Assembly: GCA_017654855.1 (NCBI GenBank)
Contig: CM030337.1
Span: forward strand, 3,100,001 to 3,164,000
Origin: Podospora anserina
Taxonomy: Eukaryota
Direction: 5' to 3'
DNA length: 64,000 nt
In this document: positions 37,937 through 56,645 of the stretch, in pieces
Numbering within the stretch: position 1 is the stretch's first letter
How the letters are laid out: each line of letters begins with the position of its first letter
The notes under the pieces: generated by a model
Told to the model about the DNA's origin: nothing
The model's database searches: none
The model's input: the letters and a program-made list of their open reading frames with translations, nothing else
Made by a program: the position numbers and the translations under genes

Positions 37937-38838
37937 TTAGCAGGTGAAGACGGCAGGTCCGGGAATGGTATAGGCTTGAGCTATAAACAGATCCATGTCA
38001 GTCTCTATTTCACAACATTTTTGAACAAAAAGGTAAAAGTGCTACGACTCACCCTTGTAAGCATCATAGGTAACACCGGGGTCGGTGCTCTTGTAGGCGC
38101 CGGGGAAGGAGACCAAGTTGGTGGGGTTGGTAGAACCGCCACCAGTAACCTGTAGCTGATGGCAACCGGGGTAGAACTGAGCACCAGGGTAGGCCCAAGC
38201 AGCATGGAGGGCAATGATCTCGTGGCGGACAAGGTAGTAGCCGGGACGAATGCAAGAGGGAATGGTGTACTGGTAAGTGGCGGGGCTCTTCATGAGAGGG
38301 GTGGCAGCCCAGTTGTTGGAGGTGCCCTCACGGCCACCTTGCTTGATTTTGAACCAGACGGCCCTTTAGAGAGGTTAGCATTTATCCTCACAACATTCGG
38401 ACAACGTGGCACATACGAGGTACCAGGAGACCAGTTCTGGCAACCGCTATCGGGGCAACGAGCCATGTAGGTAATGACGGGGCCCATGTGGGAGTCAGGC
38501 CAGAGAGTCCAGTGAAGGGTCACAGTTGAACCAGCAGCGGCAGGGGCGTGGAGAGGAGCGGGAACAGAGCCAGCATTGCACTGGACATCGATGGAGTCGA
38601 CATTCTCGACGGGACCGTTACCGGGGATGGAGCGAGAGACTCTCTGGGGCTTGTTGTTGCCCATGTAGGGGTCCATATAAGGCTGATAGAACTGTGACAC
38701 TGTTAGCATCTCGAAGCATGTCAAGAATGATCAGATGGAACTCACTTGGTAGTATTGGCCGCCAATGGTGGCATTGTCAACATAGCCGTGGGCGGCTACC
38801 AAGCCGACTGAGGCGAGAAGAGTAGCGAGAACCTTCAT
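37937..38838 (-). CDS. AA9 lytic polysaccharide monooxygenase (no CBM), similar to Neurospora PMO-3 type
   Basis: Signal MKVLATLLASVGLVAA then N-terminal His (HGYVDNATIGG); WPDSHMGP; YLVRHEIIALH; AQFYPGC; ends YTIPGPAVFTC*; three introns. Confidence 0.96.
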
Positions 38839-39721: not shown

Positions 39722-40802
39722 TCACTGCAAGAATGTCGGCGGAAGAGGAGGTCCCCAGATATGCAGACTGTCTGGCCCAGCCTCTGATCTCGAAATTGGC
39801 GTTGTCTCATCCACCAAGTCGCCGTCTACGTAATGTTCCAAAATGAAGCCCGATCGATCGTACCTGGCACCGAGTCAGCATCTCTACGCATCAAGCTAAT
39901 TCGCAAACAACACTGCCAACTCACCAGTAATCGAAAATCTGCGACCCAAGCACATGTCTGCCAACACCCCACACCAAGTCGTAGCCCTTGTCCCGAAGCC
40001 ATTGGTGGCCCAACGACTGAATATCGAAATCGTGTACCTCGAAGCTCGAGTGGTGGACGTGGTATTTGGGCCCTGAAGTCATTGGTCAGTCAGTTGTTTT
40101 GCCACCAACGAGATCTGGGCATGGATGTTAACCTTCAAAGAAGAACCAAGTGTGATGATCGACCTGTTCCATCCCCCTGTCCAAATGAAGGAAAGTAGAG
40201 ACGTCCTTCCCGTTGGGCTCGTGGATGATGTCGCTCGGCTTGAGGTTGAACCGAGTGGTGTAGAACTCGAACGCCTTGGCAAAGTTGGTCACGCAACACC
40301 CAACATGGCCCAACTTGTGAACGGCCGCTGGTGCCTTCTTGAACCGTTGTGTCTTGTTGACGGGCCGATGCTTGTTCTCGGGGAAGTTGTACTCCAGCTC
40401 GGGCAGGTGTGCTGACTTTTCGACGGGGGTTTGCCCATACACCAGGTGGAAGGGGAAGTCATCGACAGGATCTCTGAAGGTTACGCGCTTGCCGCCACCG
40501 GGCGCATCGGAATCGTGGACTGGGGTCGCCTTGGGAAGAGTCTTGGAGGCGAGCTCCAAATCCTCCAGGGACTCAACAACAAATCCAGCACCACCAAACT
40601 CATTTTCGGCGCCCTTGGTGGCACAGTATACAAAGGGCTCGGTCCCATAGCCCTTGAAGTATACTGTATCACCTCTGTCGTCGGCTACCGTGAAGCCGAA
40701 GTCGGCCAAAAACTCGCGTGCCTTGTCGAGATCGGCATGGGTGTAGTACACATGTGCAATACGCACAAGCTTGATCTTGGGAATCTGCTGCTCGGCCGTC
40801 AT
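39722..40802 (-). CDS. VOC-superfamily extradiol-type ring-cleavage dioxygenase (trihydroxytoluene oxygenase-like)
   Basis: Introns 40132-40073 and 39924-39864 extend the 224-aa ORF: LGHVG...DHHTWFFFEG|PKYHVHHSSFEV...WGVGRHVLGSQIFDYW|YDRSGFILEHYVDGD...WGPPLPPTFLQ*; His/His/Glu metal-ligand pattern. Confidence 0.9.
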
Positions 40803-41593
40803 GTTGGCGATGGACGTCTGGTAGGTCGTTTGAGGTGTGTTTGGTCAGAAAGATCTAATCTGATCTTCTCAGCGGGGCGAAGACATTGAGATATGGTCGA
40901 CTTTGATTCCACCGACAAGCACGGGGTATTTAGTTCGCCCGGGAGATGCACCGTTCTTCGGGGCAAATCATTGCTTGGCAGTCACAAGGTGGGTCTGCGG
41001 CGAGTCAAGCTGACCCCTTTTCACTGCTCAGTGGCATCACAGCACGTCTCTCTAGTGAATTTCCGGCTGTCCTTTTCCAGCAATCACGTTTTCACTGTGT
41101 ACGCAGGTTGATCATGGCGTATCACAACTCTTCGCTTCCTGTTTTGGGCCCTTTGTGTTGTTGGCAAAGCCACCTCTAAGTGAGGCTCAACTATCCTTGC
41201 AAGCTGTGCATATTTGCAACCACCCATCCTTTCCTTTTCACGCCTACCAGGTATCTGCATCAGAGAAGCCGCCGCGACCATGTGTCTCGCCTGTCACCTT
41301 GTCCAGCTGTCTTCGGTGGCCTGCGAGTTAATAGCTACCCGTCCCCGATGTGCCATCCGCCGTTCTTGGCACGGGCGATTTGCGAAGAAACTGTGGGGTT
41401 GTTTACTCCGTTGGCTTTGTCAAAGCTGACATGGCGATGTTGAATGATACTTATCCCTGAACGACCCCGCTGACAACCAGGTATGGGGTTGGACGGCCCC
41501 TCACATAAACAATCCAAAGTCATCAAGGTGTTTCGAATTTTTGCTGGGCTGTCTCTGCTTCTCCTCTAAACTTCGATCGCCGCGATACTTACA

Positions 41594-43424
41594 ATGGCCA
41601 ACGAGATCATCAAGACCGACCTCCTCATTGTTGGAGCAGGCCCTGCGGGTGCTGCTCTGGCATGCTTCCTCTCATCCTATGGGCGCAAAGGAATCATCAT
41701 TTCGGCCGCTTCTGGCACGGCGCATACGCCCAGAGCTCATATCACCAACATGGCTGCCCTGGAATGCCTGAGAGACATTGGACTGGACCGGCAATGCATC
41801 GATGCAGGCGCTGCGGGGAACCATATGGTGCACACAAGATGGTGCCATTCCATGGCCGGCGATGAATACGCCAGGCTCTATTCTTGGGGCAACGATCCGA
41901 AACGCAAGGTTTGTCAAAACACTGACACAGTTTCCGGCCAATTGCTGATGTCTTGTGATACAGGGTGACTATGATGCGGCAAGCCCTTGTGACCACGTCG
42001 ACCTTCCTCAGACCGAACTCGAGCCAATTCTCACGCGGAGAGCAATCCATACTGGCTGGACCTTGCGATTCGACACCTCCTTTGTGTCGTTCACGCGTCC
42101 TGAGCCAGACGTTATCATCAGCGAAGTCAAAGACAACCTTTCTGGCAAAACGTACAAGATCCAGTCACGCTTTCTGTTTGGCTGCGACGGCGCCCGCAGC
42201 CAAGTCATCCGCGAGCTCAAGATTCCCCTCATCAAGAAACCTGGGCAAGGATTGGCACTCAACGTGCTCCTCAAGGCCGATCTTTCACATCTCGTCAAGA
42301 ACCGAACCGGAAATCTACACTGGGTCTTCCAGCCGGAGAAGGAACATCCAGCTTGGGGTTGGGCCTGCATTGTCCGAATGGTTCGGCCGTGGGACGAATG
42401 GATGTTTATCTTTCTCCCACCCCCCGGTGCCGATGTCAAGGGTGACGACATGATTGCTTCGAACGAAGAGTACATTGCCCGGGTCAAACAGTTCATCGGG
42501 GACGAGTCGGTTGATGTCGAGATCAAGGACGTGAGCAAATGGATGATCAATGAGACGGTTGCGGAGTATTATTCAGATGGAAACATCTTTTGCTTGGGCG
42601 ATGCTGTCCACCGCCATCCACCATTCAACGGTCTGGGGTCCAACACTTGCATCCAGGATGCTTTCAACCTGGCATGGAAGCTCGATTACGTCATGTCTCG
42701 CCGCGCAGGTCCCAGCCTCCTCGATACCTACAGCACCGAGCGTCAACCGGTTGGTGTAGATATCATCACCCGGGCCAACCAAGGTCTTCGCGACCATGCA
42801 TTGTGGATGAAGTCTATCGGCATGTTGGAACCCGATTTGGAGAAGAGGAAAGCTATTCTGGCCGAGTTTGAGGACAAGGGCGAAGTTGGCAGGAAGAGGC
42901 GACAAGAGTTCCAAGCGGGCATCGAGAACACGGGCACCGAATTCCATGGGTTAGGCATCGAGATGAACCAACAGTATCGGTCGAATGCCGTGTATCATGG
43001 GGATGAGCCAGAAGCTCCGGCTCTGCCTGAGGACGCTGTGCGTGAACGTCTCATCTCCAGCTACCCAGGCATGAGGTTACCCCACGCCTGGTTGAACACA
43101 CGGAAGCCGGGCAAGCAGTTCTCGACTATTGATCTTGCTGGCCATGGGCGGTTCTGTCTTCTCACCGGGCCTGGTGGCCACAAGTGGAAGGAGGCTGCGG
43201 CCAACGCCGCCAAGGCCGTGGGGGTGGACATTGTGAGTTACTCGATTGGCTGGAAGGAGGACTATGAGGATGTCTATTTTGACTGGGCGAAGCGCAGGGA
43301 GGTGGAGGAGGACGGGTGTGTGTTGGTTCGCCCAGATAGGTTCGTTGCTTGGCGGTCAAAGTCCATGATTTCGAACCCGCAGGAAAAGCTGGAAAAGGTC
43401 TTGCGGAAAGTCTTGTGTCTTTAA
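41594..43424 (+). CDS. FAD-dependent aromatic hydroxylase (2,4-dichlorophenol 6-monooxygenase/TfdB-like)
   Basis: LIVGAGPAG, PRAHITN, FGCDGARS, LGDAVHRHPPFNGLGSNTCIQDAFNLAWKL, C-terminal PGMRLPHAWL and LVRPDRFVAWR; intron 41909-41963. Confidence 0.93.
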
Positions 43425-44036
43425 GCCGAGCGTGATAAGATAATAAACACAGTTCACACAATATTACACCTGGCGTGTCATTGCATCATCACACGCCTTA
43501 GCCCCGCTTGTCTCTCACCTCCATTTGTTTGCGGGTTTGATCAGGCATTTTCTCTCTTCTTTTTTCACACAAAATGGACCCAACGGATGACCTGTTGGTT
43601 GAGGAATGGGCATCATGGAGGTGAGATCAACTGGAGAGTGTCCACTCAGATGGTTTGAGCGCATATTCCACTTACGAAGTAAGACAGTGGACGATATTTA
43701 CAAGACAAGCTGACACAGGTGCATTGCGATGCCTTACACTAAAAGGCCGGGGTTGTTTGCTGCCAACTTGTGTCGGACCAGTTGTGGGATGCCTGTCCAA
43801 AGGTTCTGTCATTGTTCTGTCCGCGCAATTCAGCCTGTATCTTTTAACCCAACACGAACCAAAATCTATCCTTCGGCCCAATAGAGAGCTTTTGGATTGA
43901 CATGACACCTACTTGGTCTCCCACGGGTTCCTAGTTCTCCCACATGGTGGCCGATTATCCCGTGATGTTCCCCAACTTCCCCGGATTCACCCCAGATTTC
44001 CCCCACATTCTTGGCTTTTGGTGTGGTTCGAAAATG

Positions 44037-44051
44037 CGGGGAAATACCCCG
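44037..44051. promoter_or_regulatory. Inverted CGGGG-N5-CCCCG element upstream of the P450; candidate Zn2Cys6 site
   Basis: CGGGGAAATACCCCG; its half-site AATACCCCG recurs inverted at 40922-40930. Confidence 0.35.
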
Positions 44052-44511
44052 AAGGACGCTAGCCGGGTAGGACCGAATGGTGTTGGCCAGTGAGGATTTG
44101 GCCGGGGCTCATCCACCTAGCTGATGATATTGCCGGTAGTCTGGTTGGTTCGGTGCGTGCAGGGTGAGACGAGAGGACATGGTTAGACAGGTTGGTCCCA
44201 TGGTTGGCACACACATGGCAAGTGCGTGTCGCCGCCAGACCAGACATGTGCACCATGCCGAATTCAGGGGTGGCTGAACGTCCCGACGACTGACAGGGGG
44301 AGGAGGCAAGAGAGAAAAAGGTTTAAAGAGACCTCGAGGCTCGCCTTTGGTTTGAGATGAAGGGTAGGGCTCTTTGAACCTCTCACTCTTTTTTTTGTTT
44401 CGACAGCTTTTTGTTTACCTTACCCCCTTTTTTGACCTCATCTCTCCTCCATTGTCAACACCCCAACACCACCATCAGTTGGGCATCACACCCACTCCAA
44501 CTCTTTCAACA

Positions 44512-46107
44512 ATGGGCGTCCTCCTCCTCGCCGGCGGCGCCGCCCTCGCCCTCTCCATCCTCTACATCCTCCTCTTCACCGGCAAACGGGACCCACGTCT
44601 CCCACCCGGCCCCCCAACCCTCCCCCTAATCGGCAACCTCCATCAGATCCCCACCAAGCGCACCCACCTCCAATTCGCCGAATGGGCCAAACAATACGGC
44701 GAGATCTACTCCCTCAAGTTCGGCCCCGGAACCTCCATCGTCATTTCTTCTCCTCGCCTGATCAAACAGCTCGTCGACAAAAAGTCCCAGCTCTACTCCC
44801 GCCGCCCGCCCAGCCATGTAGCCGACCTCATCGCCCAGGGTGATCACCTCTTACTCATGCAGTACTCCGACCGCTGGAGGACATGCCGCAAGCTAGTCCA
44901 CCAGTACTTCATGGAGGGCATGGTAGCGAAGCAGCACGTCAAAGTTGTCAACGCGGAGGCGGTGCAGATGCTGCATGATTTTGTTACGGAGCCGAAAGGG
45001 CATATGAAGCATCCAAAGAGGTTCAGCAACAGTATCATCATGAGTTTGATCTACGGGACGAGGACGCCAAGTATCAAGACGGAGCATATGGTTCGGTTGT
45101 ATAGTCTTATGGAGAACTGGAGCAAGGTTATGGAGGCGGGGAATACACCACCCGTGGACATCTTTCCTTTCCTGAAGCTGGTGCCGGAGGGTTTGCTGGG
45201 GAATTGGAGGTCGAGGGCGAAGAATGTGGGCAAGGAGATGACAGAGTTGTATTCGGAGTGGGTGGAGAAGGGGATTCAACGGCATAGGGATCTGGGAGGG
45301 CGGGATTGTTTTCTGGACAAGGTTTTGGATCAGGGGTTGGAGAAGCTGGATTTGGACAAGCATGGGTTGTACTTTTTGTGCGGGACGGTGATGGAGGGGG
45401 GGTCGGATACGACGAGCTCGTTGATTATTGCTTTTATTCATGCCATGACCAAGTGGCCGGAGGTGCTCAAGAAGGCGCAGGAGCAGATTGATGCTGTGGT
45501 TGGGGAGGACAGGACGCCGACTTGGGAGGATTATGAGAAGCTGCCGTACATTGCGGCCTGTGTGAAGGAGGCGCATCGGTGGAGGCCGGTGACGCCGTTG
45601 GCGTTCCCTCATTCGTTGGCGGAGGATGATTGGGTTGATGGGATGTACTTGCCCAAGGGAAGTGATATCTTTATCAATGCTTTTGGGATGCATATGGATG
45701 AGAAGAGGTTTCCCAACCCCGATGTGTTCAACCCAGATAACTACGAGGGGTACACGGCGTTGGCGTCGGAGTTGGCTGGCGGTGATTACAACAACCGGGA
45801 TCATTATGGGTATGGCAGTGGGAGGAGGATTTGCCCTGGCATTCACTTGGCCGAGAGGAACTTGTTTTTGGCGGTTGCCAAGTTGGTGTGGGCTTTTAAC
45901 ATTGGGCCTGGGCTGGATGCTTCCGGGAGGGAGATCCCACCAGATGTCAGCCATGAAACTGGATACTGCTCAGGTTTCTTGGTGTGCGCGGAGGACTTTC
46001 CAGCTACTATCACACTGAGATCAGAGGCACGAAAGGCGACGATTCTGAGAGAGTATGCTGCTGCCAGGGCAGAGGTGTTTTCTCAGTACGAGCTACCGAA
46101 GGAGTAG
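44512..46107 (+). CDS. Cytochrome P450, CYP619-like (resembles patulin-pathway m-cresol/hydroxybenzyl alcohol hydroxylases)
   Basis: TM anchor, PPGPPTLPLIGNLHQ, HPKRFSNSI, MEGGSDTT, KEAHRWRP, RDHYGYGSGRRICPGIHLAERNLF; intronless. Family is from recalled similarity. Confidence 0.93.
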   Translation: MGVLLLAGGAALALSILYILLFTGKRDPRLPPGPPTLPLIGNLHQIPTKRTHLQFAEWAKQYGEIYSLKFGPGTSIVISSPRLIKQLVDKKSQLYSRRPPSHVADLIAQGDHLLLMQYSDRWRTCRKLVHQYFMEGMVAKQHVKVVNAEAVQMLHDFVTEPKGHMKHPKRFSNSIIMSLIYGTRTPSIKTEHMVRLYSLMENWSKVMEAGNTPPVDIFPFLKLVPEGLLGNWRSRAKNVGKEMTELYSEWVEKGIQRHRDLGGRDCFLDKVLDQGLEKLDLDKHGLYFLCGTVMEGGSDTTSSLIIAFIHAMTKWPEVLKKAQEQIDAVVGEDRTPTWEDYEKLPYIAACVKEAHRWRPVTPLAFPHSLAEDDWVDGMYLPKGSDIFINAFGMHMDEKRFPNPDVFNPDNYEGYTALASELAGGDYNNRDHYGYGSGRRICPGIHLAERNLFLAVAKLVWAFNIGPGLDASGREIPPDVSHETGYCSGFLVCAEDFPATITLRSEARKATILREYAAARAEVFSQYELPKE

Positions 46108-46349
46108 GTACATAGCCTTGTGTATGAATATTTCCTTTTTCGCTTCCTCAAAGCACTTTTGTCTCCAGTTGTGCAGAAGATCTTCCAGCTGTCGTCGTGT
46201 CCCTCGGTAGGTGGTGTCCCCAGCACGGGCCAATTCTGATTGGTCCGACGGTGGAGCTCGGCAATTGATGCAAGCTGTCAACGACGCCAAATTTGAAGAA
46301 TCATTGGATCAACATCAACCTTTGTTATCCAAGCACCCAAGTCATCAAA

Positions 46350-47314
46350 ATGTCTTTCCGCGTTCAGAAGGCAGCAGCCGCATCATTTCAACGGCTTGTG
46401 AGGTTTGTCAACGCTCAGGGGTCCACCAAGTTTGGTGATCTGAAGACCAGACCAACCGGCGTTAGTCTCGCCGGCGCGGAGGTTGAAGTCCTCGAGGGTG
46501 ATGTTGGCAATGGTTTCCGTGGCACTGGGAAAATAGACAAGATCCAGAAGGTGCGTTGCTCACATGTGGCATGAGAACGTCAGCTGACGTGTTTTTCAGC
46601 TTCTGTGTCCTTTGCCCCAAGTGCATGCGATTATGTGCATTGGACTCAACTATCAGAAGCACGCCACTGAAGCCAATGTATGATCCCCACCCATGCTCCA
46701 TGACGGACTGCCACTGACCAGTATAGCTACGAGTTGCCCCGTATCCTGTTCTCTTCACCAAACCAGCCGATGCTCTTGCTGGGCCTAATGAGGACATACT
46801 AGTCCACCCTGACGCTCAAAGCATGCTCGACTACGAGGGTGAGTTGACAGTGGTCGTCGGCAAAGACGCAAAGAATGTTCCCGAGACAGACGCCCTGAAA
46901 TACGTGCTTGGATACACGGTTGGCAACGACATCTCAGCGCGCTACTTCCAGCTGCCAGAGACATCAGGTGGCCAGTTTTGTTATGCCAAATCCTTCGACA
47001 AGTTTTGCCCCATTGGGCCTTGTATCGTGTCCCCTAGCCTGATTCCAGACCCGCAAAAGCTCCAGCTTGTCACCAAGGTCAATGGGCAGGTGAGGCAGCA
47101 GACCGAGACGTCGGACATGATTTTTTCGGTGGCCAAGATTATCTCTCACCTCAGCCGTGGAAGGACACTGCGGAGGGGAACGGTTATTCAAACCGGGACC
47201 CCGAGTGGAGTCGGTCTGTTCATGGAGCCCAAGGGGTTCTTGAAGAATGGGGACGTGGTTGAGGTGTCAATTGATGGATTGGGGTCGATTAGCAACAAGA
47301 TGGTGTTTGAGTGA
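46350..47314 (+). CDS. Fumarylacetoacetate hydrolase (FAH/FAHD)-family protein
   Basis: CIGLNY, LFTKP, DYEGEL, GNDISAR, AKSFD, TGTPSGVG; introns 46551-46599 and 46678-46726. Confidence 0.93.
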
Positions 47315-47565
47315 GGCAGAAAAAATACCCAGATTCTTCATAATACCTACCCCGCAATCCATTAGCCAAGTGAACCCAGTGACCTGGGGACGCTAACATG
47401 GCTAACTCGCTTAGCGGGCGTTTGAGGCCACGCTACCCCGCGCTAGTGGCGATCAGCGGCAGTCGCAATTCGTCCGTCTCTGGCAAAACTCCCCGAAAAC
47501 AACCATGCGGCCCTCGGGCAGATTTCATAAACCCACTGCCCGGGCACCTGTTCAGCAGGTGAGAT

Positions 47566-50191
47566 ATGCCGTCTTCACTTCGCGACCAACATTACCCCCG
47601 AACCATGGCGGAACCTCAGGCACACGCAAATCCACAGCAAGAGACAGGACCATCGCTGTCCGACGCGTCTGCGGCCAAACTCGCGTGCTACGCTTGCAAG
47701 AGGAGAAAGGTGAAATGGTATGTATGTGTGGATCTGTCGTCTCCAACCTCGACCTCTTGACTGACCGCATGACGTAATGGCAGTGACCGTCAACTACCTG
47801 TCTGCTCGCTCTGCCAAAAGCTCAGTGGACAATGTGAATATCCAACTCACGCCGAGAAGCCCGGTCCAAAGACTGGTGGTAAGCCGTTTTGTCAGTGATA
47901 TGCCTCATTATATACCTTCTTTCATGCAGTGAATGATATCTGACGGCATTGTATTCATCAAATCTGTAAAGGCGAAAGTTCAAATACTTACATATGTTCA
48001 TTCAGGCCCTCTTCAAGGCAACAAGCGTCGAAGACTTGATCAAGCGTCTGTGTCCAGCAGTGTCAGTCATGACCCATCCCTGAATGCCACTGGACATCGG
48101 CATACCACATCATTCGAGCTTGCTCGGCGCAGTTCCATTGCAGTATCATCTCCGACTTACAGCACAAGTCACGATGATTCCCGTACTCGAGCAGACGATG
48201 ACCTCCATTCCCGGCGAGAGGTGACCTCGCCTCTCTCAACTGGTGAATCGTCAGTAAGAATTCAGCCAACAAGTGCCCCCATCTTCTCTCGGATCATGTA
48301 CCCGTCTCATGAAGCACAGACACGCCCACAATCTCCTTCCACAGTGGACGCTTCACCTGGCCATCAAGACAATGCCATTCCCATCACCATCCAGACTGTT
48401 TGTGATGCTCTTCGGATATCAAGAGCAACATACGATGTGTTGATGGAGTCCTACTTCACCAACATGACATCATTCACCCTGTTCCGGCCAGGAAGTATTG
48501 AAGCCAAGTTCGCCATGATGCAGTTTCACTCGGACGCCGAAGCGCTGATAGCTGCCATGTTCTCCTTCTCCACCAGACATTGCCAAGATCGTGAGGACTG
48601 CCCAAGTCCGACCTACTTTGCAAAGATTGCCTACTCGAAGCTGGACGAATCAGTCGATAGTTATGGCGACAATCCCCCGCCATTCTGGCTTCTACAAGCA
48701 GGTGTTCTTGTCACCTTTTACCAACTCACCATGAGCGTCCGCTCTCGGTCGTGGAAGAAGCTTGGTGACTGCATCAGATATTCGTACGACTTGCACCTGC
48801 ACATGGTTGATGCAAACCATGACCCAGTCAAAGACAAGAACCCGGTCAACATCCAACGCTGGTCGTTGATGGAAGAACGGAGAAGAGCTTGGTGGGCTGT
48901 CTGGGAAATGGACGTCTTTGCCAGCACTATTCGACGACTGCCGACGGCCATAGACCCTGAGATGAACCTCACCATGCTCCCAGTGCCAGACAGTTGTTGG
49001 TTCAATGACGTATACCAGGAAAGCTGCTTTCTTGCTCAGGACTGCAGTCTCAGGTGGAAGCAACTTGCCCAGTCAGGCAACCAGAGCGCCAAGGCCTGGT
49101 TCATAGTGATGAACTCTTTGATGCGCAACACACAGCGCATCGTGTATCCAGTGGGATCGGCTCTGCAGTCGATGAACGAAAACCACATGGAAACCAACCA
49201 AGACGAACTCAACATCATGGCCAACACCCTCTACTGCACCGTCACTTCTTTTCCGACCAGTCTCGTCTACCAGGGGGAGACTCTTGACTTTCGACCAAAA
49301 GCTTCGGCTCAAAGCAGTCCCGATGGCATCAACCCAAGACAGGAACATGCCGACAAGTATTCCCTCCACCTGATGACGCAGCTCTGTCGGTTCATGATCT
49401 ATCATCACAAGATCTGTGCTCGAACACCGTGGCTGGCCCACCAAAAGGGTTCCAATGATGGCGGGCAGGGAGAAGGAAACAACGACCCACGAGATGCTCA
49501 GCAAGCCAACTCTGAGTGGTCCAACTACATCAACGCCTCGGATGAGATCGTCACCGTGGTCCGCAACAGCTCCCGGGACCACTACAAATTCGTCAACCCT
49601 TTCCTCGTCAACACTCTCTGGTTTGGAGCCGCGGCACAATGTGCCTGCAAAGTCTTTGGACCCGCATCGTTCAACAAACGGCTCACGATCTCCAACCTTG
49701 ACCTTTTGAAACTTACCATTGACCGTTACATTTCCTTCTGGGGGGGCATGGAGAACCTCAAGGGGAAATTGGCTCGGATTGAGACAGCCCTGCAGAGTCT
49801 GATGGCTGGGCATGGGAGACCGAACGAGCATCCGCAGGATAGGCGCCAACAAAAACAACCACTGTCACACATCCAAGGGAGCAATGGTGCTAGTATTAAT
49901 GACCTGGCTACGGTGGCCATGCAAAGACTTCCTGGTGTTACTGGTGATGCTGCCGTGTCATCATCGCCACTCCTCGTCAACATACCCGGTATTGGTCCCC
50001 CACAACCACCACCAAACCCATGGTCAACATTTGGACCGACGGACGTCTGCGGTGACTTTATCCATCCGGGGAATTTCACAACAGGGTTGACTCCAGGCGG
50101 CCCCAACTTTTACGGTCACGGGGACCCGATGGACTTTTCACCGTTTGGGCTGGAGGAGCTGCTGATGGCGAGCATGATGATGGATACGTAG
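47566..50191 (+). CDS. Zn(II)2Cys6 transcription factor with fungal-specific TF domain
   Basis: ACYACKRRKVKC|DRQLPVCSLCQKLSGQCEY across intron 47718-47783; second intron 47879-48005; EERRRAWWAVWEMDVFAS. Confidence 0.93.
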
Positions 50192-50831
50192 AACTGAACG
50201 GCATACTGCCTAACTTCGCTGCGAGCTTCTAGGGATAGCACTTAATCTTGGGTGTGTTTGTTGTAAAAAGTTAATTCGTTCTTGTCAACCGTCATAACTT
50301 GTCACTCTCTTCCGTAAACGCAGAAAGGTCTTGTACTGAATCCCCACCACCAACAACTACCCAGCACCCTGCGGTTAGGACTCCTATTACCGCCTATTCC
50401 CAATCAAATTTGTTCAAGAGAATTATGAGACTAGGGACGATTCTTCAATATCTCAGGGGTAGCCAATGAGTAGTTGGTCTAAATCTGGGGAGAAAATGCA
50501 GCAGTGCACGCCACATTTGCTTTGAGTTTGACTTGATTTATGAATGGTTGGTAGTGTAAAGCAAAAGGAGCCCTTAAACTATGTGGTACAAATTTAATCC
50601 CAGATATTTACGAAGCTCCATTGCTTCACGGGAAAGCTTTTTGGAGGCTTGAAAAAGTTGTTCAAACGCCTATCAAATGAGTACATCATCTTCCATACTG
50701 GGGAATTCCTTGCTGGATGTCAACTATCCTTTGGTAGCAGCTTTATTTGTAAATCGATATAGGTACGGAATTAAATACCATCTTGTCACCATGAACATCC
50801 ATCTCTTACACGTCTTCCAAATTCTCAATCA

Positions 50832-52909
50832 TCATACATTCATCCCCTCAAAATATCTCTCCACGCCCTCCACATCATCAACCTCCAAAACGGCACCAAT
50901 ATACCCATCAGGCCTCACAACCACCGTACAGCCAACCTGTCGGTCAATCTCAAGCCTCTCATATGCTCTGCCATGACCATCATGCACGCTCTCCACATCA
51001 GCAAACACCCTCCAAAAATCATACCCGCTCTCGTCGCTCCAAGGGCGGTACACTTCTGGCAGTGCCGAAAGATCCACCAGATCCCGCTCAGCACAATGTA
51101 CAACCACAACCTCCACCAATGGCTCTTGTTCCGACTGAGGCATCACGACATGCTTCAGAGACTTGCTCTCGCCCAAATACTTGCCCACGTCATGTAACCT
51201 CTTGGACGCAGTAGAGTCCGAGATGTCGCCAGCGAAAATTATGACTCTGAACTGCCCCGTGGCACTCAATCTCTGGTGCATCCAAGTTGGCACCCCATCA
51301 GCTTGATATACCACTCTGAAGTCGGGAAGCCTCTTTCCCGGCACCAGGTCTGCCTTGAGGAGGCTGGGTCCCAGCTGCTCGATACCCTTGGGCAACTGCA
51401 CAGCACAAGAAGGTGGGTAACGAATCGACAACCCAGTCGTGAACTTCAAGGCCTGTAGTATTTCAGTATCAAACTGTGCAGACGGAGCTGCAAACAGTTT
51501 CAGGAAGCCCTTGTCGAACGCAATGAGGTCCAGTGCCACTGGACGTCGCTCAGACTCATACGTCCTGAGAAGGTCCTGCCGTGCGCCAGAAGAACGGACT
51601 TTTCCTTCGAGAGTAAGTCTAAGCTTCCAACCAAGGTTGTACGCGTCTTGAATCGACGTGTTCATGCCCTGACCCGCCTTGGGCGAGTGCGTGTGAACAG
51701 CATCACCAACCAAGAAAGCCCGCTCATTAAGCCGAGAGAAGTGATTGCCCACCCGCTGACGCACCCGGTATGCTGACCACCACGAGACAGAACCAACTTC
51801 CATTGTATAAGGAGCAATGATCTTGCGAGCGGCATCCATGACACGGTCGAAAGTCAGGTCCTTGGGGTCAGGGAGGGCTGTGCCGCTCTCCACAGGGATG
51901 TACATCCTAACCTCCTTGTTGCTGCGAGGTACCAGGAGGATGGTGCCAGATGCGGCGCGTAGATAGCAGACCCTTCGAATATCTGGGAAGTTGGACTTGG
52001 GGATTATATCCACCACGCCAAAGACCGAGTCTGTGAGATCTCCTTCCAAAGAGACGTCGAGCTGCTTGCGGAGCCAGCTGCGGGCACCATCACAGCCGAC
52101 GATGTACTTGGCCGAGATCTTATCCGAGGGAGCATCATGTTCATTTGGTTGATGTCCATTCTGCCCGTTGATATGGTGCCCATTTGTGGCATGGCAGTTA
52201 GTCCCCTGTCGACAATGTTAGCCAACGATACTTCTCACAGATCACGGCGGTCTTACGTTAGTAGTGTCCCCATTAGTAGTATTTATGTTGGTAGTAACCT
52301 TTTCTAGGGAGACAGACACGGGAAATGTATCTGCTTCATGGACACAAGATGTGTCAACGTCAACAGAGATTGGAGCCGTGCTGTACCGAATCTCAATATT
52401 ATCATGAGAGAGAATATTGTGAAGCATGTGGTGCTCAACTCGTGCTGCAACATAGATTAGCCTGTGAGTTGGGGGTAAAATCCAAACTGGGAATATTCTT
52501 ACACTGCTGGAGCATCGTCTCCCGAGGCTTGCCAAGTTCAGCGACCTTGTCCGGAATGACTTGTTCTCTGACAATGCCTTCACCTCCATCTTTGCGTGTG
52601 CCCCAACAGGCAATTTCCTCGAGCCTCCATGATTCGGCCGTGACTTGAGGTCCAATACCGTAAGAGTCAAAGATCTCGTTGGTCGTACTCTTGAGACCCT
52701 CTGCTTGCCCACGAGGTGTTGGGCCTGGCTTCTTGTCGACAATAAGCACCTTGATGTTGGCGCCACGGAACCAGTTTGCCAATGCCAAGCTACAAGACGG
52801 TGTTAGTGATAAGCCATAGTCTAGACGATATGGAGAGGCAGTGTACCTACCCTGCAGGCCCAGCGCCGACGATGAACAGATCGACTTTGGTGGAGGCGGG
52901 AGGAGACAT
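50832..52909 (-). CDS. Phenol 2-monooxygenase-like FAD hydroxylase
   Basis: MSPPASTKVDLFIVGAGPAG|LALA..., GQAEGL, YIVGCDGARSWLR, LVGDAVHTHSPKAGQGMNTSIQDAYNLGWKL, VVVRPDGYIG; introns at about 52850-52790, 52502-52445 and 52256-52206. Confidence 0.92.
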
Positions 52910-54104
52910 GTTGTGCAGTATCGGATAATCAGAACACGGGCTTGCTGTCGATGCGTGATGTTTATCATGGACGCACTGCGGTGTTCCGGGGACCTGGAGG
53001 GTGGGTATAGACCGATATCATTGGTCACTTCGGGCGGTAGCTGCGATGAGGCCCGCGGAGTCCCCGGTTGCCAATTAGTTTCTGGCGGGCCGCAGATCAA
53101 GCGGGCCGTCTTTAGGTGATTGTCATTCCAGGCGGTGACGTGGTTTGAGCAGGATGGCAGGGCAGGTTCAAAGAACTACTGTTTACTACGTGGGGTTCCT
53201 GTCATCCAAAGCCATGGCATGTAATTACCCCTCCGCCCATGTCTCACCTTCCCCACCACCAAGTCACCTCATTCCGTCATGACTGCGCCTACCCATGAAT
53301 CCTCCACGGTTGCTTGCCGTCGTCGGCAAGAGTTCAAGCGCGCTTGCCTTGGCTCCAGTCTTTCAGAATCTAGGTCATTCAGCTCTGCCGGAAAACATGC
53401 CTTTGACCTCTCATTCGCCGAACTCAACTGATGCAAATCTATTTCCCGGTCCTCAGCTAGGAACTTCCAATGCCGCTGGCTCCTTCCGGTATCTGGCCGG
53501 CCCGGAGGCCAGCTGGATAGCTGGATGATGTATCATGACATACCCTGGGAAAGGGTCGCTAAACTACACAATGCACATCGCCATGGTTGAATCTCTCTCA
53601 TTGTCCGAATCAGCATCGAGAACTTGATCAAGGAGAAAACAGCATCCTTTGTCAGCAGCGAACAACCACCAATCAGACAGTTGTCGTCATTGACTTGCTA
53701 TCAACCCGCTCTCTCACAAATCCGGCGAACTCGCCTCACCGCAATATTTGCACATCTAAAATGAAACAATTGCATCATCCACCCCCCAGTGGCTCGGTGG
53801 ACCATGTAAGCATTCGGACGAGGCAGCCAGGGACCCTTCCTGCCGTGACCTCGTACCTGCGTGCATGAGGAAGATCGTTTCCATTACTCGGCCAGAGCGA
53901 CACTTTACGCGTGGTCGATCATAGGGGTCCACTGGCATCCTGGCGCGAGTGGCAGGCACCCTCCTGAAGCTGGGAGACGACACCAGAAGGGTGGACTTTT
54001 ATATACGGCCAAGGTGGTCACACAACTGCCCGCTACTGCCTTGAACCCCTACACCATCTTCTCCTTAATAGCCTGTAAGCTCAACAGAAGCAACCACCAC
54101 AGCA

Positions 54105-55365
54105 ATGGCCACTTCAGTCACATCCACCAAGACCCGTCCCCTGGATAAACACACTCTAAGACACTCGCACGACCTTCCACTTCCCAAAGGCCCCGACGTT
54201 CTCGATATTCGCTCCTCTCAGGAATCACTGCTACATAACTTGGACTCCAAGATTCTTGAAGGCCTCAGCCAACCACAAGGGTCCAAGTCCTTTCCTTCCC
54301 TGCTTTTGTGGGGAGAGAAGGGTCAAGTCTTGTACGACGATGTTCTGGAAGCTCCGGAGTATTACCCATACCGAGTAGAAGATGAACTTTTGCAGCAACG
54401 GGTCGACGACATTGCCAGAAAAGTGGCTTCCACAGGTACCGACATGCTCATCGAGCTGGGAGCAGGCAACATGACCAAGACAGCTCAATTTCTATCAGCT
54501 ATCGACAATTACATCAGCTCTCCACTCGTTTACTACGCCCTCGACGTAGACCAGGCCTTGTTGGAACGGTCTATTGTTGCCTTGAAAAGGCGTGTCACGT
54601 TTCGACATATCGAAGTCCGCGCTCTCTTCGGGACTTATGACGACGGAGCAAACTGGCTCGCCAGTCCCGAGATTGCCGCCTATCGGAGGACACTCATGTT
54701 TCTCGGAAGCAGCATCGGGAATGACGAGCAGGATGCTGCTGTCAGGTTCCTGAGCTCATTTACCCAAGCTCCTGAGACAGGTGTTCCCCAGAATGTGGCG
54801 GGCTTTCTACTGGCGGTTGATGGATGCCAAGATGCGGCGAAAATTGAGGCTGCTTACGATGTGCCAGGCGGGTATTCCCGCCGGTGGGTGAAACAAGCGC
54901 TGGAGTATGCACGGGAGCTATTGGGTGAGGGCATCGATAGGGCTGAGGTTGACTGTATTTTTGATGACAACAATTGGAAGTTTGAGGGAAGATGGTTACC
55001 TGAGCGTCAACGATACCAGACATATCTCACCACGACGTGCTCTCTCACGGCAACAATTAGGGGACAAACCATCACCTTGGAGGAAGGGGAGAGATTACCA
55101 ATCATCAGCAGTGGCAAGTGGACAAGGGAGACGGTGGACGGGGTATCTCTGAAGGCCGGTCTCAGCATCGAGAAGTCTTGGAAGAATCCTGAGTTTGATT
55201 ACAGTGAGTACTCGTTTTCATCAAGTTCAGCCAACATCCGTGCTAAATGCGGAAACAGACATTTATTGGCTGCAGCCAAGCCTCAAGAGGGTGGACAGTG
55301 GCATTGTCATTATTGATGAGCTCGAAGCGGAGGGACATGATCAGGTGCATCACCGCAACGAGTGA
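54105..55365 (+). CDS. EgtD/EasF-like (Methyltransf_33) SAM-dependent N-methyltransferase, stand-alone
   Basis: KSFPSLLLWGEKG, PEYYPYRVE, IELGAGNMTKT, YYALDVD, GTYDDG, FLGSSIGN, IEAAYD, SGKW; intron 55204-55258; stop 55363-55365. Confidence 0.9.
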
Positions 55366-56196
55366 AGGGAAACGAAGGATCTCTGCACAGCCGGCTGTGT
55401 TATCTTGCACAATTTGATAGACCATAATGTGCCAATTGCATGACGTCTCCAACATTGATCCTTCATGTGCCCGCCCACTACTGCAGCAAGCCACACATGC
55501 TGGTCAACAAACTTGCACCTTCAAGGCGTGCCACTATCTCAGACCACTTTTCCTGCCACTGAGATCACGAAAGGCTTGAATCCGAGATGATACCGATGAA
55601 CCCCATCCGCACCTATAGCATCAACGCCATAAGCACTCAATTTCCACGTCTTCTTCAAAATCCCCCAACCTCGTACTTTTCTTTTTGCCTTTCCAATCAA
55701 TCTCTCACGATCAATCCACGTTGAGGTGGGCAGACCGAGAACTTCAGCTCTCTGCACTCTGCAGATCATCACCCACTTGGGATGGTTGCATACATGTACA
55801 CCCTTCCTAGCTCCGCCCCGGCGCGCCGGCGCGGGCGCGGCCACCGTCGATCATATAGGACAGGGATAGCTCGGGGAGCTCATGATGTAACCGTACTTGT
55901 ATTTTAGGGTGCAATGCAGCCTCCACAATCAGTGTACAGGTACGTCGCCGCGGCCGGGTGAGGGATACGGGATGGGACGGAGGGTTCTCCGGTGGGGTAC
56001 CAAGTTCGGCGGCCATCATTACCAGCCATCCGTTGCGCTGAAGTGACTCCGCGGAAACGCAGGCGCGTCTATCAAACAGACCGGTGGCTCGGTCTTGCTG
56101 TCAGATCATTCTTTGAGTCTCACCCATTCGCTCTCATTGCTGTCTCATCAACTACCTATCCTTGGCTGCTACCTTTGCGGGGTTGTGTGGATCACT

Positions 56197-56252
56197 GTTC
56201 TGAATGACGACCAAATGTTTCACCGTTCTGAATGACGACCAAATGTTTCACC
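56197..56252. repeat. Perfect 28-bp tandem duplication
   Basis: GTTCTGAATGACGACCAAATGTTTCACC at 56197-56224 and 56225-56252. Confidence 0.95.
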
Positions 56253-56645
56253 TTGACCGCCTTCCAAGACCCCCCCTTCCTATACCGTCCCTGGAATGCT
56301 GTGCGATGTCTTCCAGATCTTTGAAACCCATTCCTGCGGTGGTCGAATAACGCACTCTCCCCCGTCCGACCTCCCACAGCAGCAAAGTTGGACCCTTGAA
56401 CCATGGTGCATTAGCAGCTTCAATAAGCAATGTGAGCTCTCAGATCAAGCAAAATTGATGTGTCAAGAAAACAGGACTACCTTCAGGTCAAAGGGAGATT
56501 CGACCAGATCCCATTCATACCAACGCAGCTAATCCTGACATTACCATTATCCCCAACCCAAACCCTCTTTTCCATGTCCAAACTCCTCAGTAAACCACCA
56601 GATCCAACTTGTCTTACACTACATCAACTTTACAGAAATGATCCA

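Follow-up and report, generated by a model that had tools for sequence, protein, structure and literature searches.

Gene content of the cluster

We analysed a 64-kb stretch of Podospora anserina DNA (hereafter the window), running Pfam on stop-to-stop open reading frames (ORFs) and splicing gene models at GT-AG introns. Six adjacent genes lie at 39722-52909 and correspond to PODANS_6_7790 to 7840 of the Podospora anserina complex (Table 1). They are present and intact, with spliced models that are open throughout, and fall into the families named in the first-pass annotation. The cluster begins at the VOC stop codon (39722) and ends at the start codon of the phenol 2-monooxygenase, PMO (52909). 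The spliced VOC model agrees with P0001 in 318 of its 319 residues, and the FAH model with P0121 in 286 of 288. The Zn2Cys6 motif of the regulator, CX2CX6CX6CX2CX6C, appears only after its first intron is removed. In the divergent promoter region between the VOC gene and the flavoprotein monooxygenase gene (FMO1), CCGTTCTT occurs twice, at 40951 and 41360; a search for a promoter word common to the cluster genes found none.

Table 1 Features of the cluster, in positions of the window, with spliced gene models and the ORFs with Pfam domains.
Feature	Position	Strand	Length	Exons	Pfam domains and ORF
VOC two-domain putative extradiol-type dioxygenase, PODANS_6_7790	39722..40802	-	319 aa	40802-40133, 40072-39925, 39863-39722 (stop included)	Glyoxalase/VOC, 40128-40844
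Common VOC/FMO1 divergent promoter region	40803..41593	.	791 bp between start codons		
FMO1, group A flavoprotein monooxygenase, TfdB/HbpA/MhqA type, PODANS_6_7800	41594..43424	+	591 aa	41594-41908, 41964-43424	FAD_binding_3 + Rng_hyd_C, 41570-43424
Cytochrome P450, 6_7810	44512..46107	+	531 aa	single exon	p450, 44368-46107, E 2e-75
FAH-superfamily enzyme, HpcE/FAHD type, PODANS_6_7820	46350..47314	+	288 aa	46350-46550, 46600-46677, 46727-47314	FAA_hydrolase, 46727-47314, E 4e-64
Zn2Cys6 transcription factor	47605..50191	+	about 797-806 aa	47605-47717, 47784-about 47878, about 48006 (or 47979)-50191 (second intron ambiguous)	Fungal_trans, 47933-50191, E 5.5e-13
PMO, phenol 2-monooxygenase, PhhY type, PODANS_6_7840	50832..52909	-	635 aa	52909-52851, 52789-52503, 52444-52257, 52205-50832	FAD_binding_3 + Phe_hydrox_dim, 50832-52217

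Structural relatives and active site

The VOC protein, as modelled with AlphaFold2 (pLDDT 82, pTM 0.83), has the fold of a type I extradiol dioxygenase. All Foldseek matches listed for the model are two-domain VOC proteins, headed by 3b59 (E 2.5e-21, TM 0.77), an unassayed Mn(II)-bound 'glyoxalase', and followed by the extradiol dioxygenases 3lm4, 7q2a, 1mpy and 1q0o. At the sequence level, matches to solved extradiol enzymes have E values of 1e-6 or weaker, apart from the unassayed 3b59, and all NCBIfam matches of both VOC and FAH fall under the family cut-offs. A profile alignment pairs the key residues with the matching His, His and Tyr of BphC (1han). Residues H166, H217, H231 and Y272 are kept in all 37 fungal VOC sequences and E282 in 36, the remaining one having a gap; of the 61 bacterial sequences, 60 retain H166 and all have the remaining four residues.

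The names given at first pass to the two flavin hydroxylases proved apt. FMO1, called TfdB-like, has 2,4-dichlorophenol 6-monooxygenase (6u0p) as its best solved relative (E 2e-98) and also matches solved HbpA (E 3e-90), while PMO matches 1foh along its full length (E 1.7e-105). FAH is related to the solved HpcE (1gtt), diketo-deoxyrhamnonate hydrolase (8gsr) and FAHD1, in a subfamily that mixes decarboxylases, isomerases, hydratases and hydrolases, which alignments do not separate. The P450 has an exact sequence match in the protein collection, with members named 'Cytochrome P450 E-class, group I', and a search for a narrower family gave no assignment; its N-terminus, read by eye, is hydrophobic, suggesting a membrane anchor.

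Conservation in fungi and bacteria

The VOC and FAH genes are kept together in fungi of three classes, in support of the first-pass reading. In 11 species, Dothideomycetes and one Leotiomycete among them, their locus tags or accessions differ by 2 to 5, and the two sit on equally long contigs in 7 further named fungal cases; in this comparison, made for the pair alone, linkage was found in all species named in both match lists. PMO is linked to these genes only in Podosporaceae and lies at another locus in six of the seven more distant species compared. The description of the locus as a self-contained six-gene cluster thus holds within Podosporaceae, but not for PMO beyond them. Judged by sequence comparison, the conserved core is VOC, FMO1 and FAH, with PMO a lineage-specific neighbour outside it.

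All three core proteins also have counterparts in bacteria. Plasmid byi_3p of Burkholderia sp. YI23 carries an annotated mhqA, then a VOC gene and, four genes later, an FAH gene; FMO1 is 36% identical to MhqA (601 aa, E 4e-123), VOC 33% to MhqB (316 aa, E 4e-51) and FAH 45% to its homologue (214 aa, E 1e-56). A Pseudomonas locus (L009) has FAH, VOC and hydroxylase genes in a row on one strand, the hydroxylase being 41.6% identical to FMO1 over 589 aa. Among 80 bacterial loci, an FAH homologue lies at most about 8 kb from the VOC gene in 72 and a group A flavin monooxygenase within the same distance in 46; none of the 80 has a counterpart of the P450. Because the VOC-FAH linkage recurs across fungi and bacteria, the adjacency of the core is beyond what chance would give.

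In the VOC tree, MhqB falls in a different bacterial branch, on a long branch, from the one that joins the fungal clade. A match to the NCBIfam malonic semialdehyde reductase family (307 bits, cut-off 152) was found in 11 of the 80 loci, 10 of which fall in the subgroup of bacteria placed with the fungal clade in the tree. The reductase gene adjoins the VOC gene in 10 of these 11 loci and lies about 6.4 kb downstream in L001. A CoA-acylating methylmalonate-semialdehyde dehydrogenase (719 bits, cut-off 448) follows in 5/80 loci. These two enzymes are those needed for the predicted C3 product, and the gene context of the nearest bacterial relatives points to malonate semialdehyde.

Proposed pathway, rival explanations and known systems

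Our combined findings suggest a phenolic catabolic cluster whose core performs meta-cleavage of a hydroxyquinol-type ring (1,2,4-trihydroxybenzene or trihydroxytoluene), as a fungal counterpart of the Mhq and lower 2,4-dinitrotoluene routes; we put the probability of this reading at roughly 0.58. The P450, joined in Podosporaceae by PMO, may convert a phenolic precursor to a (substituted) hydroquinone or resorcinol, with para-hydroxylation, O-demethylation and phenol hydroxylation as candidate reactions. By homology to MhqA, TfdB and HbpA, FMO1 would then use NAD(P)H and FAD to add a hydroxyl ortho to an existing one, yielding a 1,2,4-triol. The VOC enzyme is predicted to bind the vicinal diol at an Fe(II) or Mn(II) ion that has H166, H231 and E282 as its ligands, with H217 and Y272 catalytic, and would cut beside the diol to give a 2,4-dihydroxy-6-oxo-hexadienoate, a tautomer of a 2,4,6-trioxo acid. 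Bacterial gene context suggests that FAH tautomerises and hydrolyses this 2,4-diketo acid to pyruvate and either malonate semialdehyde or its substituted or acyl counterpart, and that housekeeping enzymes may then oxidise the malonate-semialdehyde-type fragment; the fungal cluster itself contains no gene for handling semialdehydes. From their position, the P450 is presumed to belong to the pathway and the Zn2Cys6 factor to be its specific activator. The extradiol fold of VOC with its five key residues, and the match of the core to bacterial mhqA/mhqB-type sets, support the order of hydroxylation, ring cleavage and hydrolysis put forward in the first-pass annotation. The literature searched yielded no reports of enzyme activity, induction or knock-out for the cluster genes.

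That annotation had read the cluster as classical catechol meta-cleavage. In such a route the two hydroxylases would form a (methyl)catechol, VOC would be a catechol 2,3-dioxygenase, and FAH would serve the muconic semialdehyde branch as a XylJ/XylI/HpcE-like hydratase or decarboxylase. The VOC fold does match the catechol 2,3-dioxygenases 1mpy, 5zsz and 3hpy too in Foldseek, and the protein has weak NCBIfam matches to catechol_2_3 and HpaD, but these catechol-type matches score 48-60 bits against cut-offs near 320 bits. Similarly, PMO resembles the catechol-forming 1foh, yet of the six genes its own is conserved least. The HpcE isomerase/decarboxylase is the best solved relative of FAH, and fungal VOC orthologues are named 'Metapyrocatechase 2' in their sources; against this, the gene context of the nearest bacterial relatives suggests malonate semialdehyde rather than the pentenoate branch, and ORFs of at least 110 aa in the 64-kb window include no 2-hydroxymuconic semialdehyde dehydrogenase or hydrolase, aldolase or acetaldehyde dehydrogenase. 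The evidence favours cleavage of a 1,2,4-triol with C-C hydrolysis of a 2,4-diketo acid, and we consider the catechol route unlikely. Direct cleavage of a substituted hydroquinone (a para-diol), with VOC acting without prior hydroxylation as in enzymes of the PcpA/LinE/MhqO kind, appears less likely still. Such enzymes share their VOC superfamily with the fungal protein, precursors of the hydroquinone type are plausible, and the mhq ring-cleavage genes of Bacillus and Paenibacillus are given as of unknown function in PMC12673573. However, neither the 15 sequence matches with E no higher than 0.1 nor the Foldseek matches listed, to rank 47, include a PcpA or LinE-type chain; the conserved adjoining ortho-hydroxylase of the FMO1/MhqA type would be needless; and the product, 4-hydroxymuconic semialdehyde, would be no 2,4-diketo acid for the FAH hydrolase, while the dehydrogenase it requires is absent from window ORFs of at least 110 aa.

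Fungal secondary-metabolite clusters often hold VOC proteins, P450s, flavin monooxygenases and Zn2Cys6 factors, and the genes downstream of this cluster include methyltransferases, an MFS transporter and a laccase. The genes could on this account serve tailoring, detoxification or self-resistance instead of carbon catabolism, and VOC might even bind a ligand without catalysis, as bleomycin-resistance proteins do. This seems about as improbable as direct hydroquinone cleavage: window ORFs of at least 110 aa contain no PKS, NRPS, terpene cyclase or prenyltransferase domains, the metal triad and catalytic His and Tyr are strictly conserved, and the VOC-FAH pair is kept in the three fungal classes and in bacteria beside catabolic genes. 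Lastly, the genes may form no functional unit at all and may adjoin by chance, as members of families (FAD_binding_3, P450) with many genes per genome; PMC12420386 gives an average of 28 FAD-binding-3 genes per fungal genome. The unlinking of PMO outside Podosporaceae and the want of a common promoter word would fit, but the consistent VOC-FAH linkage in the fungal lists, the nearness of FAH to VOC in most bacterial loci and the homologues of all three core proteins within single bacterial gene sets make such a coincidence very hard to credit.

The hydroxyquinol-type pathway that we favour is most readily compared with the Mhq genes of the fenitrothion-degrading Burkholderia strains NF100, YI23 and SFA1, in which the three core protein families are likewise grouped: an FAD hydroxylase of about 590 aa with a Rng_hyd_C-type C-terminal domain, a VOC protein of about 315 aa and an HpcE-type FAH of about 286 aa. 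There, mhqA encodes a flavoprotein monooxygenase and mhqB an extradiol dioxygenase (PMC4572682), both reported on plasmid BYI23_F (PMC3703598), and the route runs from 2-methylhydroquinone via trihydroxytoluene to 2,4,6-trioxoheptanoate (PMC8571283). Unlike the fungal cluster, the Mhq genes are plasmid-borne, stand beside an acyl-CoA ligase and a thiolase, and lack a P450, a Zn2Cys6 factor and a second phenol hydroxylase, all of which the fungal cluster has. The natural substrate in the fungus is unlikely to be a pesticide metabolite. To the lower 2,4-dinitrotoluene route of Burkholderia (DntD, DntG, DntE), set beside the cluster by description, the likeness is one of reaction logic. DntD, the trihydroxytoluene oxygenase, is a VOC-type protein and DntG, the isomerase/hydrolase, an FAH-type one; DntE is the methylmalonate-semialdehyde dehydrogenase. 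In that route, as in the one proposed here, extradiol cleavage of a 1,2,4-triol is followed by an isomerase/hydrolase giving pyruvate and (methyl)malonate semialdehyde; as described in PMC10602510, pyruvate and propionyl-CoA arise through trihydroxytoluene oxygenase, an isomerase/hydrolase that is bifunctional, and a methylmalonate-semialdehyde dehydrogenase that depends on CoA. A methylmalonate-semialdehyde dehydrogenase also occurs in the bacterial operons whose VOC is closest to the fungal one, but the fungal cluster has no dehydrogenase. A 'trihydroxytoluene oxygenase' is listed, by automatic annotation only, for a Scedosporium genome (PMC5716253).

The closest VOC relatives found (41-44% identity) are in proteobacterial operons of the form TetR, FAH - VOC - malonic semialdehyde reductase - transporter - methylmalonate-semialdehyde dehydrogenase (loci L001, L005-L010, L012, L013, L016, L017), whose FAH is 39-43% identical to the fungal one. 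We know of no experimental study of these operons, which carry TRAP or MFS transporters and a TetR repressor; most lack a flavin hydroxylase beside the pair. The classical type I enzymes BphC, XylE and homoprotocatechuate 2,3-dioxygenase share with the fungal VOC the two-domain fold, the 2-His-1-carboxylate site and the catalytic His and Tyr, but only 16-22% identity in structural alignments, and their pathway context differs. The known fungal routes, namely the intradiol hydroxyquinol 1,2-dioxygenase leading to 3-oxoadipate, the homogentisate-type MhdA and the DUF3500 enzyme of the 1,2,3,5-tetrahydroxybenzene pathway, serve the same purpose of clustered hydroxylated-benzene catabolism with a flavin monooxygenase and often an FAH-like gene (PMC10832562), but use other dioxygenase families than this VOC. 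Intradiol cleavage was given as the sole kind described in fungi up to PMC10512348, and PMC12420386 reports large clades of fungal VOC-type extradiol dioxygenases without reference enzymes. If our reading is correct, this cluster would open aromatic rings in a fungus by an extradiol route so far characterised only in bacteria.

Gene content of the cluster and its surroundings

The six-gene cluster, which extends from the stop codon of the VOC gene at 39722 to the start codon of the phenol 2-monooxygenase (PMO) gene at 52909, matches PODANS_6_7790 to 6_7840 at the protein level; such matches, exact or nearly so, put this intron-bearing DNA of a filamentous ascomycete in the Podospora anserina species complex. 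All six families that the first-pass annotation had named between these positions were recovered by Pfam on stop-to-stop open reading frames (ORFs), and the spliced models built for them with GT-AG introns are all open. The VOC gene is divergent from that of the flavin hydroxylase FMO1, with the FAH gene two genes further on. FMO1, a group A flavoprotein phenol hydroxylase, pairs an FAD_binding_3 domain carrying the dinucleotide-binding motif at its start (N-terminus LLIVGAGPAGAALA) with a C-terminal Rng_hyd_C domain. The label TfdB-like suits it well, its nearest solved relatives being 2,4-dichlorophenol 6-monooxygenase (6u0p, 2e-98) and the 2-hydroxybiphenyl 3-monooxygenase HbpA (3e-90), both of which, judging from their names, hydroxylate ortho to the phenolic hydroxyl. 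Likewise, PMO, of the PhhY type, combines FAD_binding_3 with the dimerisation domain Phe_hydrox_dim and matches the Trichosporon phenol hydroxylase 1foh across residues 8-634 (1.7e-105), while the Zn2Cys6 factor displays the CX2CX6CX5-12CX2CX6-8C pattern, readable across intron 1, together with a Fungal_trans domain (E 5.5e-13). The P450 matched only "Cytochrome P450" clusters of Ascomycota in the protein atlas, with no finer family.

The flavin hydroxylase appears fused to the P450, as a protein of 1048-1064 aa named "phenol 2-monooxygenase", in the gene models publicly available for Triangularia setosa, T. verruculosa and Cercophora samala. In the window, FMO1 and P450 are kept apart by a stop codon and 1087 bp, and these fusions are probably prediction artefacts. 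On neither strand of the cluster's five promoters did we find a 9-12-mer shared by at least three or an 8-mer shared by at least four. Two copies of the word CCGTTCTT lie in the promoter shared by the divergent VOC and FMO1 genes (at 40951 and 41360), each within a CCG...CGG-type element; the cluster's remaining promoters have none.

Four genes located just past the cluster (54072-64000) may form a separate small-molecule gene group. Elsewhere, an intronless ORF with a bacterial-looking enzyme for a fungal genome lies where the window is richest in G+C (0.566); its best NCBIfam match, CoA-disulfide reductase, is below the cut-off (E 2e-101). A tRNA scan of the 64-kb window found none.

Features of the Podospora anserina window, in window coordinates
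Feature	Position	Strand	Description
HeLo (prion-inhibition/propagation) domain ORF	2159-2755	+	close to window start
Pyr_redox_2 + Pyr_redox_dim ORF	11674-13344	-	557 aa, C-terminal rhodanese
AA9 lytic polysaccharide monooxygenase exon	38293-38730	-	about 1 kb from VOC 3' end
VOC dioxygenase	40802-39722	-	3 exons, 319 aa
FMO1 flavin hydroxylase	41594-43424	+	2 exons, 591 aa
P450	44512-46107	+	1 exon, 531 aa
FAH	46350-47314	+	3 exons, 288 aa
Zn2Cys6 factor	47605-50191	+	3 exons; intron 1 splits zinc-cluster motif
PMO phenol 2-monooxygenase	52909-50832	-	4 exons, 635 aa
EasF/EgtD-type methyltransferase	54072-55316		TIGR03439, 308 bits against a cut-off of 206
MFS transporter	56861-58111	-	
O-methyltransferase	60359-61078		
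Multicopper oxidase	from 62841		laccase Pa_6_7880 by gene numbering

The predicted dioxygenase and its FAH partner

Pfam detects the VOC protein weakly (E 2.9e-9). A profile built from 37 fungal orthologues (alignment A1) matched the solved structures 3b59 (1.9e-13), BphC (1.2e-6) and homoprotocatechuate dioxygenase (5e-5). An AlphaFold2 model of the protein (pLDDT 82, pTM 0.83), compared by Foldseek, has two tandem beta-alpha-beta-beta-beta VOC domains and resembles 3b59, 3lm4, 7q2a, 1mpy, 1q0o and 1f1r with TM scores of 0.70-0.78 at 16-22% identity. The top structural relative, 3b59, is a Mn(II)-bound VOC protein without assayed function, and the Foldseek matches listed below it are extradiol dioxygenases. 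In the profile alignment, H166, H231 and E282 fall opposite the BphC metal ligands, and H217 and Y272 opposite its catalytic His and Tyr, residues that we take to be the 2-His-1-carboxylate ligands and the catalytic pair of that enzyme. In fungi, H166, H217, H231 and Y272 are conserved in 37 of 37 sequences and E282 in 36; in bacteria, H166 is conserved in 60 of 61 and the other four in all 61. Because the fold matches and the metal and catalytic residues are retained, the protein has every sequence and fold feature of an active two-domain extradiol dioxygenase of type I, which we predict it to be, in agreement with its original designation as a VOC dioxygenase. A PcpA/LinE-type hydroquinone dioxygenase was considered as another identity for the protein and rejected, with no such match among the sequence-profile or Foldseek matches listed.

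The designation of the partner as an FAH-family enzyme holds too, given an FAA_hydrolase domain (Pfam E 4e-64) and full-length similarity to the solved HpcE/FAHD members 1gtt (3.6e-57), 8gsr (3e-44) and FAHD1 (3.5e-37). It belongs to the short HpcE/FAHD branch, which contains decarboxylases, isomerases and hydratases as well as true 2,4-diketo-acid hydrolases, for instance L-2,4-diketo-3-deoxyrhamnonate hydrolase and the acylpyruvase FAHD1. The NCBIfam model that fits it best, 2,4-didehydro-3-deoxy-L-rhamnonate hydrolase, scores 198 bits against a cut-off of 500, and the protein aligns equally well to hydrolase, decarboxylase and isomerase members, such that the reaction is not fixed by sequence.

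Linkage of VOC and FAH in fungi and bacteria

Linkage in other fungi was judged from the locus tags and accession numbers of the hits and from contig identity by equal size. Consecutive accessions follow gene order in Podospora bellae-mahoneyi (KAK4640898, 899, 900, 901 and 903 for VOC, FMO1, P450, FAH and PMO) and in Apiosordaria backusii (KAK0726517 to 522), and the approach is therefore valid for such assemblies. Among the best 120 of 610 VOC matches and the best 120 of 7917 FAH matches, identifiers of the two proteins are 2-5 apart in 11 species, comprising Sordariomycetes (Cercophora sp. LCS_1, Madurella fahalii, Parachaetomium inaequale, Coniochaeta sp. 2T2.1, A. backusii, T. setosa, T. 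verruculosa and P. bellae-mahoneyi), Dothideomycetes (Rhizodiscina lignyota and Patellaria atrata) and Leotiomycetes (Xylogone sp.), and no species named in both of these sets has VOC and FAH apart. Contigs of equal size carry both genes in seven more named cases (a second copy in Coniochaeta 2T2.1, C. hoffmannii, C. ligniaria, Madurella mycetomatis, Corynascus similis, Chaetomium sp. and Canariomyces notabilis) and on three further contigs. The lignocellulose-associated Coniochaeta sp. 2T2.1 has two VOC-FAH protein pairs, P0006/P0134 and P0369/P0133, on separate contigs of 2,978,509 and 4,453,468 bases.

PMO keeps its cluster position in Podospora species, A. backusii, T. setosa, T. verruculosa and Cercophora samala. 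In six of seven more distant species (Corynascus similis, Coniochaeta 2T2.1, C. hoffmannii, Venustampulla, Conoideocrella and Aspergillus turcosus) the top-ranked PMO-like protein comes from a different contig or has a locus tag far removed; the contigs of the seventh, Podospora australis, are too small to place it. We also examined 10 of 150 listed FMO1 representatives, the named fungal ones being from Botryosphaeria, Aspergillus brasiliensis, Xylariaceae and Fusarium, and none was on a contig equal in size to those of the listed VOC or FAH matches, a result compatible with FMO1 being either linked or unlinked there. Since VOC-FAH linkage is widespread but PMO is unlinked in six of the more distant species, the conserved core, as judged from identifiers and contig sizes, is VOC plus FAH with 1-4 genes between them, and the six-gene unit is by the same measure a family-level feature. 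Co-conservation across species thus holds for the VOC-FAH pair, and the self-contained six-gene cluster of the first-pass annotation holds within Podosporaceae: among the matches listed, all six genes in order were confined to Podospora species, Apiosordaria, Triangularia and Cercophora samala.

When one genome was scanned for each prokaryotic species, at least 600 stretches matched, of which 584 were confirmed as relatives. We kept 80 bacterial loci, mostly from Pseudomonadota, with a near full-length VOC of 35-44% identity, and scanned all of their long ORFs. An FAH homologue was present in the same ~17-kb locus as VOC in 72 of the 80, and at least three of the eight loci without one are incomplete. 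When Pfam was run on 10 loci, FAA_hydrolase adjoined VOC in nine, the FAH of the remaining locus (L002) lying outside the ORFs submitted. A group A flavin monooxygenase was found in 46 of the 80 loci and a P450 in none of them. Two gene contexts were apparent. In one (43 loci), an acyl-CoA ligase gene comes after VOC and FAH, and a flavin hydroxylase often lies upstream of them. In the other (11 loci), there is a malonic semialdehyde reductase gene (NCBIfam, 307 bits against a cut-off of 152), adjoining VOC in 10 loci and ~6.4 kb downstream in L001, as well as a TetR gene and a transporter; in five loci a CoA-acylating methylmalonate-semialdehyde dehydrogenase then follows (719 bits against a cut-off of 448).

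The trio of VOC, MhqA-type flavin hydroxylase and FAH is also found in bacterial loci L081 and L009. The latter, from Pseudomonas, combines the reductase-bearing module with a same-strand row of FAH, VOC and hydroxylase, and over 589 aa this hydroxylase shares 41.6% identity with FMO1. Positions 1512-10988 of L009 (Pseudomonas sp. PLMAX) hold two VOC-FAH modules side by side, one with a GntR regulator, a TfdB-like hydroxylase and a porin, the other with TetR, malonic semialdehyde reductase and an MFS transporter, which suggests the upper and lower branches of one route. A Betaproteobacteria metagenome-assembled genome has both ring-fission types at one locus (L003, 5146-7024), where a VOC homologue 42% identical to the fungal protein adjoins a thiolase and an intradiol dioxygenase with Dioxygenase_N and Dioxygenase_C domains; no FAH gene was found in this locus.

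A candidate route and its bacterial counterparts

Our combined findings point to a route in which the P450, together with PMO in Podosporaceae, would convert a phenolic precursor to a hydroquinone or resorcinol, from which FMO1, by homology, would make a 1,2,4-triol. VOC, with its observed fold and residues, would then open the triol by extradiol cleavage, and FAH would split the resulting 2,4-diketo acid by hydrolysis, releasing pyruvate and either malonate semialdehyde or a substituted form of it, products that we infer because the nearest bacterial operons hold semialdehyde enzymes. The Zn2Cys6 factor is the presumed activator. A putative preference of VOC for 1,2,4-trihydroxy substrates is supported only indirectly, by analogy with the related operons and their malonate- and methylmalonate-semialdehyde enzymes. 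We assign this reading as a whole, extradiol cleavage of a triol followed by FAH hydrolysis, a probability of about 0.58, and consider it quite likely that, more broadly, the core forms an extradiol-plus-FAH module for aromatic catabolism. The earlier idea of meta-cleavage is supported by the predicted extradiol fold and residues, but classical lower-pathway genes of the xyl/dmp type were not found beside VOC among the window's ORFs of at least 110 aa. None of the 126 ORFs above this floor, which smaller proteins such as a tautomerase would escape, has an Aldedh, alpha/beta-hydrolase or aldolase domain.

A quick maximum-likelihood tree built from VOC sequences (37 fungal, 61 bacterial), midpoint-rooted and produced with a program warning of long-branch joins, unites the fungal proteins in one group (SH-aLRT 100). 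This group joins, with a support of 92 (unstarred), the bacterial subgroup that includes 10 of the 11 reductase-bearing loci. The placement is compatible with a single origin of the fungal VOC and with either direction of any transfer. A bolder scenario posits a further, unrecognised central route of filamentous ascomycetes, running from VOC cleavage of a hydroxyquinol-type triol through FAH to pyruvate and malonate semialdehyde and bypassing 3-oxoadipate, in which an early ancestor of Pezizomycotina acquired the linked pair once from Proteobacteria and later added the P450, the Zn2Cys6 regulator and extra hydroxylases. We regard this scenario as less likely than not.

Fungal breakdown of lignin and plant phenolics is usually described in terms of intradiol cleavage and a few cupin-type enzymes. 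Passages of two articles state that only intradiol cleavage had been described in fungi so far (PMC10512348, 2021) and that extradiol enzymes occur less commonly among fungi (PMC12388069, 2025), and part of a 2025 cross-kingdom survey places fungal VOC-type extradiol dioxygenases in large clades without a characterised reference enzyme (PMC12420386). Our literature search, made outside subscription journals and supplements, found no characterised fungal member. Searching by locus number, excerpts of the Podospora literature yielded only the neighbouring laccase Pa_6_7880 (PMC3129052, PMC3495915, PMC2441463), and articles on Podospora phenol 2-monooxygenase, lignin or transcriptomes, exclusive of supplementary expression tables, yielded nothing on the cluster genes. 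The main text of the FAMeDB paper (PMC13094099) has no extradiol, meta-cleavage, hydroquinone, orcinol, resorcinol or glyoxalase, and in literature on orcinol and acetylpyruvate hydrolase we did not find cloned genes for the Pseudomonas orcinol route.

The cluster provides a well-defined test case in a harmless model fungus that is amenable to genetics, with an enzyme, a partner hydrolase and a substrate class named: probably hydroquinones and resorcinols, degraded via 1,2,4-triols to the predicted pyruvate and malonate semialdehyde. If confirmed, it would add one more central aromatic pathway in fungi, explain a widely conserved pair annotated merely as "glyoxalase/dioxygenase" and "FAH domain protein", and provide a function for hundreds of unstudied bacterial operons.

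This kind of pathway is already known in bacteria. Our plasmid protein search matched plasmid byi_3p of Burkholderia sp. YI23, annotated in the order thiolase, acyl-CoA ligase, mhqA, VOC dioxygenase, three small genes and FAH. FMO1 is 36% identical to its MhqA (E 4e-123), the fungal VOC 33% identical to its VOC, MhqB, over 316 aa (E 4e-51), and the fungal FAH 45% identical to its FAH (E 1e-56); in the tree, MhqB falls into the other bacterial group, on a long branch. The fenitrothion genes mhqA and mhqB lie on byi_3p according to an excerpt of PMC3703598, and encode a flavoprotein monooxygenase and an extradiol dioxygenase according to one of PMC4572682. The Mhq route leads from 2-methylhydroquinone through trihydroxytoluene to 2,4,6-trioxoheptanoate, as outlined in part of PMC8571283. 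In the lower dinitrotoluene route, a section of PMC10602510 describes a trihydroxytoluene oxygenase, a bifunctional isomerase/hydrolase and a CoA-dependent methylmalonate-semialdehyde dehydrogenase, acting in this order to yield pyruvate and propionyl-CoA. On that description, the lower dinitrotoluene pathway follows the same logic as the Mhq-like reading of the Podospora cluster, a likeness in reaction logic alone.
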